A stretch of 64,000 nt of DNA from Bdellovibrionales bacterium (GTDB lineage: Bacteria; Bdellovibrionota; Bdellovibrionia; Bdellovibrionales; CAYMLA01): the NCBI GenBank assembly GCA_965217115.1, contig OZ244239.1, forward strand, positions 256,001 to 320,000, read 5' to 3'. The position numbers are program-made. Shown here piece by piece: positions 45,001 through 48,000 of the stretch. Every line of letters begins with the position of its first letter. The stretch's first letter is position 1.

Positions 45001-48000
45001 AAACGACAAATTTATGGAATAACGAATTCATGCCTGTTGCTATATGGGATGGCGTTCTTTATATTGTATGTCTCTCTCCTCCTGATGATTTAGAAATCAA
45101 TTACTCTGATTTATTTAAAAAGTTGGACGGCGTAACAAAACATCAAATAGCCATCGCGACCCCTGAATGCTTAGAAAAATGGTGGAATAAACTTCCTCAT
45201 ACGGGAAAAGAATCTTCTATTTCAAAAATAAACTTTTTACAACAGACCTCTACACCAGAGAAAGTCACAACCCTAAAGCCACCAATAGATATCACAAGAA
45301 CATTCAATGTTAACTTTCCACCCAAACCAGAAGACTACACAACGACAAGAGCCCTTGAAAGTGACTCTCTAGATATACCAAATAAGGATCTCAGCACAAT
45401 CAGATCTTTGTCCCCAGATAGTGCCACTGATTGGAAGGAGATCGGAGAATTAATATTTCCAAAAATGGAAAAATATTATAGACAAACGATGATCATGGCA
45501 CTCGACGGTCACAACCTTTGGCCTAAATCATGGAACAACCAGTGGAACGAACCATCTTTAGAAGAAGTGACACCCACTCCTCTTGGAACAGCTAGTATTT
45601 TTGAGATTGTTTCCAAAACGCAAAAACCCTACCACGGACCTGTCTTCGCGAACCCTATTAATAATCATTTTTTTAGCTTCTGGGATTCAAACAAACTTGC
45701 TAAATACATCACTATCGTACCAATTATCGTTCATGGACAAATCGAAGCTATGCTCATTGGCACCTCTGATTCAGAGATTAACTCCCGTAGAAGGCTATCA
45801 GCTATGGAGAATTGGGGTAAAGAAATTTCCACTTCCCTCTCTCCGGTGACTTCAATACTCAAAGCCTTCTAGAGAGAACCATCCGTCGCTGCTCTGCAAC
45901 CCCCGTTCTCTGAAGATTTAAGCAAAACACGCTCCAATCAATAGGAATAAATTCTTTATGTAAACGATCTCCCCACTCAATAAGAATTAATCCGTGGGGA
46001 CGGGAGAATAAATCCCAAAAACCTGTTGTCTCTAAGTCCTCATCATTTTCTAAACGATAAAGATCTAAATGATCAACAATTCTACCATTTGGTAACTCAT
46101 AAGAATTATGGATCGAAAAAGAAGGAGAACAAGCATCCTCATACCCCAGCCCTTGTAATAAAAAGGTCACCCACTGAGTCTTTCCCACCCCCATAGGCCC
46201 CTCTAATAAAACCACCGTCTTGTCTTCTAAATTATCAGCAATAAACTCATGTGCTTTCTTCTTAAGCACATTTAAGTCATCGACAAGAGAGGTTAAGTGT
46301 TCTTCTGCCATAGCATTAAATCACTTTCTTCATTTCACGCACAGCTTTTTTTAATCCCATCTCCAAAGAGTAACAAATTAAAGAATGCCCTATGTTTAAT
46401 TCTTGTAAATGAGGCAGGTTTTTGGCTATGACACTTGCCGAGTGAAAATCCAATCCATGTCCCGCATGAACCCTAAGATTTAATTTATGGGCACAGATCG
46501 CTGCCTTTTTTAATCTTTGCCATTCATGACGCTTTTTTTCCCCTCTCAATAAAACCCAGGAGCCCGTATGCAGTTCCACTGCATCAGCTCCAATCTCGGC
46601 ACAGGCCTCTATCTGTTTAATACTTGGATCAATAAAAGGAGATACTTCAATCCCTCCATCCTGTAATTTTCTGGTGACTTCTCTCATCTTTCTCATATGA
46701 CCTGCTACATCCAATCCCCCTTCGGTTGTCAGCTCTCTTCTCTTCTCTGGAACAAGGCAAACAATGGAAGGTTTATTCTTTAGAGCCACACTCACCATTT
46801 TTTGAGTCGCTGCCATCTCTAAATTCAATGGCACTAAAGATTTCTTAGACAATAACTCCACATCACGATCTTGAATATGACGACGATCTTCTCTTAAATG
46901 AATCGTTATTTGATCGGCACCACCCTGCACTGCTAGATTCATCATATTTACTAAATCAGGATAGGGGGTGGTTGCACCACGAACCTCCCTTAAGGTTGCA
47001 GCATGATCAATATTCACACCCAAACGAATTCGGCCCATCTCTTCTTACCCTAAGGACTTTTGTAGAAATTTAGCCATCTTTTCCGCCAGTTCATTAATTT
47101 TCCCCTTGCTCGGTCCCTCTACCAAAATCCTTACAACAGATTCTGTTCCAGAGTAACGCACAAAAATACGTCCCGCTCCTTTTAACTGCTCAGAGATATC
47201 CCCATGTAACTTCTCATAACCATCTAATTCATGTAAAGGTATCTTAATATTTACACGCAAATTAATCAAAATTTGAGGCACCTCTTCAAACTCTTTCACC
47301 AAATTATGTAACGCCGTCTGACGCGCTTTCATAATTCCCAAAATACTAAGTCCCGCTATCAATCCATCACCTGTTGTCGAATGATCTAGAAAAATAATAT
47401 GTCCCGACTGTTCTCCGCCTAACACATAACCTTTGTTACGCATCTCTTCGATCACATTACGATCACCAACATCCGTCTTAACAAGAGATATCCCAGACTT
47501 TGTCATTAGTTTTTCCAAACCAAAATTACTCATCTGAGTCGCCACCACTGTGTTATGTGGTAATTTACCACACTCCTTTAGGTAAATAGCACAAATAGCC
47601 AAGATCTGATCTCCATTAACTACCTTGCCCCGCTTATCTGTCATGATCACACGATCTGCATCACCATCTAAAGCAATACCCACGTCCGCCCGATACTCAA
47701 CAACCGCTTCACCTAAACGACTGGGATATAATGCTCCTGATTTATCATTAATATTTGTCCCATTAGGCTTATTACCAATGACAATCACCTCTGCTCCTAA
47801 TTCCTGCAACACCATAGGAGCAACCTTGTAGGAGGCACCATGGGCACAATCTAGCACAATACGAATTCCATCCAGAGTTTCTTTTTGTGGAAATGTATCT
47901 TTAACAAAAACGATATAACGACCAGTGCTATCCTCTATTCTTTTACTACGACCAATCTCCTCAGAACTGGGTAAAAGCTCATTGAGGTCAGTATTAAAAA

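Follow-up and report, generated by a model that had tools for sequence, protein, structure and literature searches.

The window, a 64,000-nucleotide stretch of a Bdellovibrionales genome, carries pdxJ within a block of genes on the minus strand:

45859..46311, minus strand: tsaE (t6A ATPase subunit), directly downstream of pdxJ; TIGR00150 75.9 bits (cut-off 60.1)
46316..47038, minus strand: pdxJ (pyridoxine 5'-phosphate synthase, E. coli type), 240 aa; NCBIfam, Pfam and 1m5w matches
47045..48412, minus strand: glmM (phosphoglucosamine mutase), directly upstream of pdxJ; TIGR01455 583.4 bits (cut-off 447.55)
48470..51678, minus strand: three further upstream ORFs (137 aa, 244 aa and 660 aa), part of a conserved block

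Judged by motifs in their translations, the 137-aa, 244-aa and 660-aa ORFs are putative cdaR/ybbR, cdaA and ftsH. The pdxJ neighbourhood was conserved across 16 families (21 loci compared): the glmM cluster adjoined pdxJ in 17 of the 21 loci, the tsaE cluster lay near it in 14, upstream ORF clusters 2, 4 and 3 recurred beside it in 15, 14 and 14, and an nnr gene (YjeF_N plus Carb_kinase) sat between pdxJ and tsaE in 9. Around pdxJ at these loci, we found housekeeping genes only (tilS, glmM, nnr, tsaE, iscR, iscS and mnmA, together with the putative ftsH, cdaA and cdaR). The family f12 neighbourhood held a gloB-like gene and a MazG-like gene.

An earlier note had placed pdxJ at 46316-47038, and the gene proved to be full length with its active-site residues kept. 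The encoded protein passed three PdxJ NCBIfam equivalog cut-offs (NF003625, 305.8 bits against 190; NF003627, 305.0 against 207; TIGR00559, 266.2 against 192.75), the equivalog match covering residues 4-240, and the Pfam PdxJ model aligned over its whole length (297.9 bits; model 1-234/234). The E. coli PdxJ structures 1m5w and 1ho1 matched at E 1.5e-71, with residues 2-239 aligned. We then compared 15 residues that we take to make up the catalytic and phosphate sites of E. coli PdxJ (N9, D11, H12, R20, H45, R47, H52, E72, T102, T103, E153, H193, G194, G215 and H216). In alignments to 1m5w, 1ho1 and E. coli K-12 PdxJ, all 15 were identical in the window protein, and they were likewise unchanged in the E. 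coli-type PdxJ of lineages without the DXP synthase Dxs (17/17) and of lineages with it (10/10). Judging from sequence, the pdxJ product may be a working PNP synthase that condenses DXP (1-deoxy-D-xylulose 5-phosphate) with 3-amino-1-hydroxyacetone phosphate.

The genome searched is one contig of 2,170,531 bp and is complete (99.43% completeness). PdxA was found (Pfam, 212 bits; TIGR00557, 243.7 bits, below its cut-off of 290.35), with nearly equal PDB matches to PdxA (131.7 bits) and PdxA2 (134.7 bits), as was PdxH (TIGR00558, 233.7 bits; cut-off 180). Searches for Dxs gave only cross-matches (21-95 bits, 22% identity), every one of which fell on the transketolase-like protein g00984; DXP_synthase_N gave a single cross-match of 21.3 bits inside the same 676-aa ORF (C1:1051572-1053602). 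Neither Dxr nor IspH had a match in the genome at E ≤ 1, and two HMG-CoA reductases were present. E. coli ThiC, ThiE and ThiG had no tblastn match at E ≤ 1e-2, and a binding protein resembling ThiB (33% identity, E 4e-44) adjoins a ThiP-like permease. These searches uphold the earlier note's account of a genome with PdxA and PdxH, without Dxs or MEP genes, and with a thiamine transporter and no ThiC, ThiG or ThiE.

The second branch of the B6 pathway also appears to lack its textbook enzymes (Epd-PdxB-SerC). E. coli-type SerC had no tblastn match in the genome at E ≤ 1e-2, the PdxB search returned only generic dehydrogenases (27-30% identical, one being SerA proper), and the Epd search returned a GAPDH-like protein (41% identical). 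An AGXT-like aminotransferase adjoins a 2-hydroxyacid dehydrogenase, a putative stand-in for the missing branch. No homologue of pyridoxal kinase (PdxK, PdxY) was found in the genome, and unphosphorylated B6 would therefore be unsalvageable by the known route. Four short PdxS motifs were absent from the six frames of the genome, a weak test.

Across the order, the earlier note had found Dxs in none of 30 sampled genomes and PdxJ in at least 331 of 383. In our wider scan, the Dxs model TIGR00204 scored above its cut-off in a single genome (383/384 without), and the count for PdxJ was higher, at 355/384 overall and 262/274 among high-quality genomes. The one Dxs-positive genome (G170) is 83% complete and 6% contaminated, with two matches on small contigs; the GC content at its Dxs locus is 0.33, and the encoded protein shares 47-51% identity with Dxs from E. 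coli and from the phylum. PdxJ was retained in 114 of the order's 121 genera and in its reduced genomes of 1.2-1.6 Mb, and none of the 150 PdxJ matches listed contained stops. Among 131 genomes sampled across the phylum, 54 of the 80 with PdxJ lacked both Dxs and IspH, and family f15 had PdxJ in 0/19. The paradox of PdxJ without Dxs is real and wider than first stated, spanning much of the phylum; our full-text literature searches found no paper on it. For isoprenoids, thiamine and vitamin B6 alike, DXP synthase is regarded as the one way in to DXP, and it is pursued as an antibacterial target; no enzyme other than Dxs is known to form DXP. The DXP of these bacteria must therefore derive either from prey or from an enzyme yet to be recognised, the two candidate sources that the earlier note had named.

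Two ways out of the paradox lie in the proteins themselves, a Dxs too diverged for profiles or a PdxJ with another substrate. The earlier note's candidate for a hidden Dxs, g00984, fell below every NCBIfam equivalog cut-off, for transketolase (NF004559, 256.9 against 488) as for Dxs (NF003933, 126.3 against 395; TIGR00204, 103.2 against 465.95). Its clade is isolated (next full-length relatives 27-31% identical), and a first model gave a Dxs-like packing of domain I on II/III of the same chain. That packing was artefactual and came from an alignment of 12 sequences: refolded with 64 sequences (pLDDT 92.3, pTM 0.92), g00984 had transketolases for all of its best 50 PDB matches (human TK, TMq 0.73-0.75) and no Dxs. 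The residues we take as transketolase-specific in E. coli TktA numbering (His100, Ser385, His461, His473 and Arg520) were present in 12/12 orthologues, whereas of the presumed Dxs-specific residues, Tyr392, Arg398 and Arg420 were Phe, Thr and His in all 12, and the Arg478 position varied. From what we take to be the E. coli transketolase catalytic list (His26, His66, His100, His261, Ser385, Glu411, His461, Asp469, His473, Arg520 and Arg358), 10/11 were conserved in 12/12 orthologues; the exception, the phosphate-binding position Arg358 (human Arg318), was Gln358 in 21/21 clade members. The protein would also be the genome's only transketolase, alongside a genuine transaldolase, and its orthologues, confined in the 131-genome phylum sample to the order (family f10 excepted) and f21, are missing from the PdxJ-bearing, Dxs-less families f10, f25 (0/6) and f26. 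We therefore rejected g00984 as a hidden Dxs; residues and predicted fold identify it as a probable transketolase, and a diverged Dxs is very improbable. A PdxJ that condenses a substrate other than DXP, the earlier note's other escape, is less probable still, because the full set of 15 residues at the DXP and phosphate sites is conserved. The match to E. coli PdxJ over residues 2-239 argues against it too, as does an alignment of PdxJ from 21 Dxs-less Bdellovibrionota and 11 Dxs-bearing genomes, in which no column split the two groups. This escape is a logical one, and we found nothing in its favour.

Several other routes to DXP were considered and rejected in this genome. For the XylB deoxyxylulose kinase route, the sole FGGY kinase is GlpK (NF000756, 715.6 bits; XylB model, 211 against 380), and for the YajO route there was no tblastn match. 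The MTA-isoprenoid shunt of the Rhodospirillum type uses a RubisCO-like protein, and RuBisCO_large reached only 11.3 bits (E 0.11). For the FSA route (hydroxyacetone plus glycolaldehyde), a 223-aa Tal/FSA-family protein passes the NCBIfam model named 'fsa' (286.4; cut-off 245.95) and has TalB-like Glu, Phe, Asn and Ser at what we take to be the FSA-type sites Gln59, Tyr131, Leu107 and Ala129. RibB is represented by one ordinary RibBA copy, with nothing pointing to a DXP role.

The genome's E1-type enzymes are an E1 alpha/beta pair, a 907-aa AceE-like protein and a fused 754-aa E1; further thiamine-diphosphate proteins are OFOR alpha/beta, a 570-aa protein (TPP_enzyme_N only) and a 168-aa protein (TPP_enzyme_C only). 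By distribution in the 131-genome phylum sample, neither the transketolase-like protein, E1 beta, the AceE-like protein nor the fused E1 tracks the presence of PdxJ with the absence of Dxs. Orthologues of E1 beta occur in 18/19 genomes of the PdxJ-less f15 and 14/14 of the Dxs-bearing f22 and are missing from f21; those of the AceE-like protein occur in 15/19 of f15 and 18/18 of f17, with none in f21, f24, f25 or f26; and the fused E1 is absent from five reduced PdxJ-bearing genomes. These five each have exactly three Transket_pyr proteins, namely SucA, transketolase and E1 beta. E1 enzymes are chemically close to the required DXP reaction. One study reports that purified PDH and acetoin dehydrogenase form 1-deoxyxylulose, that one mutation in aceE or in ribB is enough to rescue E. 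coli without dxs, and that wild-type PDH fails to rescue dxs loss in vivo (PMC3424233). Our AceE-like protein has the wild-type residues at positions equivalent to L633, E636 and H640.

For contrast, we turned to Flavobacteriales (n = 22), in all of which PdxJ was present and IspH absent. An orphan Dxs above cut-off was retained in 19/22, and 15 of these 19 lacked ThiG; PdxJ's DXP demand is therefore normally met by Dxs, and ordinary side activities seem insufficient in Flavobacteriales. IspH-less Flavobacteriaceae are of the mevalonate type, and the free-living ones apparently keep Dxs just for PdxJ. The three Weeksellaceae that we examined (Chryseobacterium soldanellicola, Epilithonimonas sp. 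and Chryseobacterium sp. E1) are free-living and not known to be predatory; all three had PdxJ, lacked IspH and gave no Dxs match at E ≤ 1e-60. C. soldanellicola combines this state with an intact PdxJ of the Bacteroidota-type variant and a thiC-thiD-thiE-thiG-thiH-thiF operon. In two Weeksellaceae, the genes around pdxJ and around thiG included no additional enzyme, and the thi operon was of the usual kind. A non-Dxs supply of DXP probably exists in free-living bacteria too, and the contrast between Flavobacteriaceae with Dxs and Weeksellaceae without it reduces the generality of an answer based on prey alone.

PdxJ is intact, and Dxs, the MEP pathway and the other known DXP routes are absent; endogenous synthesis and the enzyme responsible are inferred. 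We tentatively favour an enzyme inside the cell, other than Dxs, as the source of DXP. Dxs would have been lost along with the MEP pathway, and DXP would therefore be made in the cell by another enzyme, at the very small flux needed for a cofactor. The likeliest maker would be of the thiamine-diphosphate type, an enzyme in which pyruvate is decarboxylated and its hydroxyethyl intermediate is coupled to glyceraldehyde 3-phosphate, and the genome's several E1-type enzymes are of this kind; PdxJ, PdxA and PdxH would then turn DXP and 3-amino-1-hydroxyacetone phosphate into pyridoxal phosphate, as in E. coli. The retention of PdxJ, its invariant active site, the lack of a pyridoxal kinase, C. soldanellicola, E1 chemistry and the three Transket_pyr proteins of the reduced genomes lend this proposal some support. 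Counting against it are the absence of a candidate with the right distribution, the orphan Dxs in Flavobacteriales, the failure of PDH to rescue and the housekeeping-only pdxJ neighbourhood, and the missing textbook enzymes of the other branch fit a scavenging of intermediates as well. With somewhat greater reserve, we suggest that Bdellovibrionota might have a natural, unrecognised Dxs-free DXP route, perhaps paralleled independently in Weeksellaceae, which feeds PdxJ and in Chryseobacterium also ThiG.

Import from prey of DXP, deoxyxylulose or the intermediates of both branches while the predator grows inside or on its victim, with PdxA, PdxJ and PdxH completing the synthesis, is a somewhat less likely alternative, and several observations suit it. 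Gram-negative prey contain DXP because they use the MEP pathway, but the pools are presumably small. Relatives bear Bdellovibrio and Bdellovibrionales names, both branches are without their upstream enzymes (Dxs, E. coli-type SerC and PdxB), and PdxJ has been lost entirely in some lineages of the phylum, such as f15, so that life without PdxJ is possible there. The published metabolic model of B. bacteriovorus required a supply of pyridoxal phosphate from outside, and it refers to the uptake of intact nucleoside monophosphates (PMC7529429). A BLAST-level search of our genome, however, found no homologue of the UhpT/UhpC type of sugar-phosphate importer at E ≤ 1e-2, and usable prey vitamers should let pdxA and pdxJ decay, yet PdxJ persists in 355/384 genomes. 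The same state (Dxs judged at E ≤ 1e-60) also holds in the three Weeksellaceae, which are not known to be predatory. It is improbable that the PdxA and PdxJ steps are idle or being lost while PdxH interconverts phosphorylated vitamers from prey (PLP, PNP, PMP): PdxH is present, PdxJ is missing from 12/274 of the order's high-quality genomes, and the metabolic model treats PLP as an auxotrophy (PMC7529429), but PdxJ is kept in 114/121 genera and in the 1.2-1.6 Mb genomes, its catalytic residues are invariant and its neighbourhood is conserved over 16 families.

A large bacterial lineage keeps a DXP-consuming B6 enzyme throughout its history without Dxs, which points to a new DXP-forming enzyme or to piracy of an intermediate from a prey pathway. 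Either answer would alter how vitamin auxotrophy is read from predator genomes and from those of bacteria that use mevalonate. If true, a Dxs-free route would give biology a second source of DXP, in bacteria whose isoprenoids derive from mevalonate.

The closest known system is the DXP-dependent PLP pathway of E. coli, which shares with this genome an E. coli-type PdxJ with the same active-site residues, a PdxH above its equivalog cut-off and a PdxA encoded after surA-like genes, E. coli pdxA presumably likewise following surA. Unlike E. coli, the genome lacks Dxs, E. coli-type SerC and PdxK/PdxY, and has generic 2-hydroxyacid dehydrogenases in place of PdxB. Mutations in aceE and ribB that suppress dxs loss in E. 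coli show that an E1 enzyme or RibB can supply DXP (PMC3424233), and this genome has an AceE-like protein, other E1s and one RibBA. Those strains are laboratory mutants; the AceE-like protein here has wild-type residues at the equivalent positions. The iCH457 model of B. bacteriovorus HD100 likewise counts pyridoxal phosphate among the cofactors supplied for in silico growth, but as a plain auxotrophy, with the retained pdxA/pdxJ and missing Dxs undiscussed in the passages concerned (PMC7529429). Flavobacteriaceae resemble the order in having PdxJ and no IspH, and differ in that 19/22 Flavobacteriales keep a Dxs that feeds B6 in the ordinary way, against 383/384 genomes of the order without one. 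The Weeksellaceae examined share PdxJ without Dxs (E ≤ 1e-60) or IspH (3/3), but are free-living and not known to be predatory, and C. soldanellicola has a full ThiG-based thiamine operon and a Bacteroidota-type PdxJ. Set side by side, the orphan Dxs of Flavobacteriaceae and its absence from Weeksellaceae and Bdellovibrionota offer a comparative handle on the missing step.

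The pdxJ product is predicted to use DXP (1-deoxy-D-xylulose 5-phosphate), in a genome without DXP synthase (Dxs). The gene lies as follows.

Window 46316-47038, minus strand: pdxJ, 240-aa ORF matching three NCBIfam equivalogs, Pfam PdxJ and E. coli PdxJ structures

The earlier note's call of this ORF as pdxJ held: it passed the cut-offs of all three equivalogs for pyridoxine 5'-phosphate synthase (NF003625, 305.8 bits against 190; NF003627, 305.0 against 207; TIGR00559, 266.2 against 192.75), matched Pfam PdxJ end to end (297.9 bits) and aligned over residues 2-239 with the E. 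coli structures 1m5w/1ho1 (E 1.5e-71). All 15 E. coli active-site positions compared (N9, D11, H12, R20, H45, R47, H52, E72, T102, T103, E153, H193, G194, G215 and H216), which we take to be the catalytic and phosphate-binding set, were identical. By sequence, the protein is predicted to be a functional, DXP-using PdxJ. On the same strand, pdxJ is flanked directly by glmM upstream and by tsaE downstream. Across 20 extracted loci and the window's own (21 loci, 16 families), the glmM cluster adjoined pdxJ in 17, the tsaE cluster lay near it in 14, nnr fell between pdxJ and tsaE in nine, and tilS, iscR, iscS and mnmA also occurred in the wider block; no sign of a DXP-forming enzyme was seen in these neighbourhoods. 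Near tsaE in the window are two plus-strand ORFs, one of 486 aa (43010-44470), which begins like a signal peptide and has repeated motifs rich in Asp/Gly, and one of 365 aa (44775-45872) with no NCBIfam match.

The PdxJ proteins of four loci (L043, L046, L048 and L049; families f4, f11 and f12 of the order) were only 28-34% identical to that of the window and carried the variant N11/K12/S103/D194, shared with two Weeksellaceae PdxJ. The f12 gene also had a different context, with gloB-like and MazG-like genes adjoining. Together these features suggest replacement of pdxJ within the order.

We searched the whole genome (one contig, C1; 2,170,531 bp; 99.43% complete), and the claimed absence was borne out for Dxs, Dxr and IspH. 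The only match of the DXP_synthase_N profile was a stretch of 21.3 bits within a transketolase-like ORF of 676 aa, which scored 95 bits against a cut-off of 466 with the full Dxs model and was the sole match of E. coli Dxs (22% identity); Dxr and IspH had no match at E<=1, and two HMG-CoA reductases were present. One (L002:1393-3807, C1:1888032-1890446) is an 804-aa protein with an NADPH-type reductase domain at 31-409 and ~400 further residues; the second (L003:1330-2661) is class-II, 443 aa. As for the proposed PdxA/PdxJ/PdxH set, PdxJ and PdxH (233.7 against 180) passed their cut-offs, but PdxA fell below that of TIGR00557 (243.7 against 290.35) despite 212 bits with Pfam, and its PDB scores were near equal for PdxA and PdxA2. 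The gene follows two SurA-like genes, much as pdxA follows surA in E. coli. E. coli ThiC, ThiE, ThiG, ThiL, PdxK, PdxY, SerC, YajO, UhpT and UhpC gave no tblastn match at E<=1e-2, and four short PdxS motifs, a weak test, were found in none of the six frames. The reported thiamine importer was recovered as a ThiB-like protein (33% identity, E 4e-44) adjoining a ThiP-like permease. SerA proper is present (589 bits), and a second 2-hydroxyacid dehydrogenase adjoins an aminotransferase:

L070:4131-6341 (C1:1949131-1951341), minus strand: AGXT/BhcA/PhnW-like class-V aminotransferase (402 aa), with the 331-aa, PGDH-like 2-hydroxyacid dehydrogenase directly downstream

We guess that this pair is a non-orthologous stand-in for PdxB/SerC; it is alternatively a possible part of phosphonate or serine metabolism.

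The earlier note also described the order (Bdellovibrionales, judging by how close relatives are named) as having PdxJ and no Dxs, and a count over 384 genomes agreed: PdxJ was found in 355 (262 of 274 high-quality genomes; 114 of 121 genera), even in genomes of 1.2-1.6 Mb, and Dxs above cut-off in one, G170 (83% complete, 6% contaminated), as two hits on small contigs that may be contaminants. An evenly drawn sample of 131 genomes of the phylum (Dxs threshold E<=1e-100) had Dxs in 50, IspH in 51 and PdxJ in 80. Among these 80, 54 lacked both Dxs and IspH, 24 had both, and two drafts of 90% and 85% completeness had IspH and no Dxs match. No family in the sample had Dxs without IspH, and family f15 had neither PdxJ nor Dxs (0/19 each). 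From these tables, PdxJ without Dxs therefore extends over the order plus no fewer than nine other families. We read Dxs as having been lost together with the MEP pathway. Earlier comparative work on mevalonate distribution exists. Mevalonate genes are enriched in predators, as restated in one article (PMC4646340).

One protein had been a candidate for a hidden Dxs:

L018:7572-9602 (C1:1051572-1053602), minus strand: g00984, transketolase-like, 676 aa

It fell below all equivalog cut-offs (transketolase, 256.9 against 488; Dxs, 126.3 against 395) and was collinear with human transketolase (3ooy, E 2.5e-37), with its Dxs match confined to the C-terminal half. Orthologues (12/12) kept the transketolase-specific His100, Ser385, His461, His473 and Arg520 (E. 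coli numbering) and had Phe, Thr and His for the Dxs-specific Tyr392, Arg398 and Arg420, with Arg478 variable; these residue roles, and the phosphate-binding role below, are our assumption. A first AlphaFold model (12 sequences, pTM 0.71) resembled Dxs (TMq 0.60-0.65) more than transketolases (0.38-0.44). This resemblance was an artefact: the best 50 PDB matches of a model with 64 sequences (pLDDT 92.3, pTM 0.92) were all transketolases (human, TMq 0.73-0.75). Residues and fold together argue strongly against g00984 as a hidden Dxs. It is the genome's only predicted transketolase; its 223-aa partner protein has the TalB-type Glu/Phe/Asn/Ser signature, which marks it as a transaldolase and not an FSA. 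The g00984 clade is isolated (next full-length relatives, 27-31% identity) and unusual in sequence, with Gln358 in 21/21 members where other transketolases have a phosphate-binding Arg (human Arg318). Its cofactor motif is SDG instead of GDG.

The remaining thiamine-diphosphate enzymes comprise SucA, an E1 alpha/beta pair, a 2-oxoacid:ferredoxin oxidoreductase and the following:

L019:6219-9538 (C1:417219-420538), minus strand: fused E1 alpha/beta, 754 aa (E1_dh + Transket_pyr + Transketolase_C)
L071:4223-6946 (C1:904223-906946), plus strand: AceE-like E1, 907 aa, very diverged (TIGR00759, 130 bits against 860)
L227:764-1270 (C1:477764-478270): small protein with TPP_enzyme_C only, 168 aa
L226:967-2679 (C1:1534967-1536679): small TPP-domain protein, 570 aa, TPP_enzyme_N match only

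The genome encodes two E2 proteins, SucB and a PDH-like E2 in a lipA-E2-lpd-lipB cluster. The AceE-like protein, 59-64% identical across the order and encoded ~18 kb from that cluster, is a candidate for the pyruvate dehydrogenase E1 of this lineage. The fused E1 has no adjoining E2. It overlaps a weakly FabD/MdcH-like acyltransferase (352 aa) by 4 bases, a pairing suggestive of acyl starter-unit synthesis. Using one protein query each in the 131-genome sample, we found that none of the enzymes tested tracked PdxJ without Dxs: transketolase-like orthologues were confined to the order (not f10) and f21; E1 beta also occurred in f15 (18/19) and f22 (14/14) and not in f21; the AceE-like protein occurred in f15 (15/19) and f17 (18/18) and not in f21, f24, f25 or f26. 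Five reduced PdxJ-bearing genomes were limited to SucA, one transketolase and one E1 beta. Other known routes to DXP were absent from the genome, which has no RubisCO-like protein, no YajO and GlpK as its sole FGGY kinase.

Gene content throughout underlies our weighing of DXP sources. We tentatively favour endogenous DXP synthesis by an enzyme other than Dxs, probably of the E1 type, which would feed PdxJ. In one study, mutants in aceE and in ribB were a source of DXP, and deoxyxylulose was formed in vitro by PDH and by acetoin dehydrogenase (PMC3424233). Derivation of DXP from prey is rather less probable, staying plausible because upstream enzymes are missing and because of the lifestyle. 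It is improbable that the B6 pathway stands idle and vitamers are salvaged; a B. bacteriovorus model lists pyridoxal phosphate among cofactors needing supply (PMC7529429). A hidden Dxs is very unlikely given the transketolase character of g00984, and use of another substrate by this lineage's PdxJ is hardly credible against its 15 conserved active-site residues. A full-text literature search, with most subscription journals outside its coverage, returned nothing on PdxJ without Dxs.

A comparison is offered by 27 named Bacteroidota genomes, picked by 16S probe scan. The five with IspH all had Dxs, PdxJ and ThiG. The 22 without IspH, all Flavobacteriales, all had PdxJ; 19 had Dxs above cut-off, and 15 of those 19 lacked ThiG. 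PdxJ is the sole known DXP consumer in these 15; even the modest amount of DXP that B6 synthesis needs thus normally suffices to retain Dxs. The orphan Dxs of Flavobacteriaceae (genomes G497-G522; frames of ~592-646 aa) is a shortened form, because its two-piece model match omits approximately model positions 195-232. At a search depth of E<=1e-60, which a more diverged Dxs could escape, Dxs was not found in the other three, the Weeksellaceae Chryseobacterium soldanellicola, Epilithonimonas sp. and Chryseobacterium sp. E1. In the first, PdxJ is intact (NF003626, 349 bits) and the thiC-thiD-thiE-thiG-thiH-thiF operon complete; in the last, PdxJ and ThiG are both split, as if by frameshifts in the assembly. 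Retention of Dxs in Flavobacteriaceae argues that something specific, beyond background chemistry, would replace it here, and the Weeksellaceae case of PdxJ without Dxs argues that such a replacement could exist without prey.
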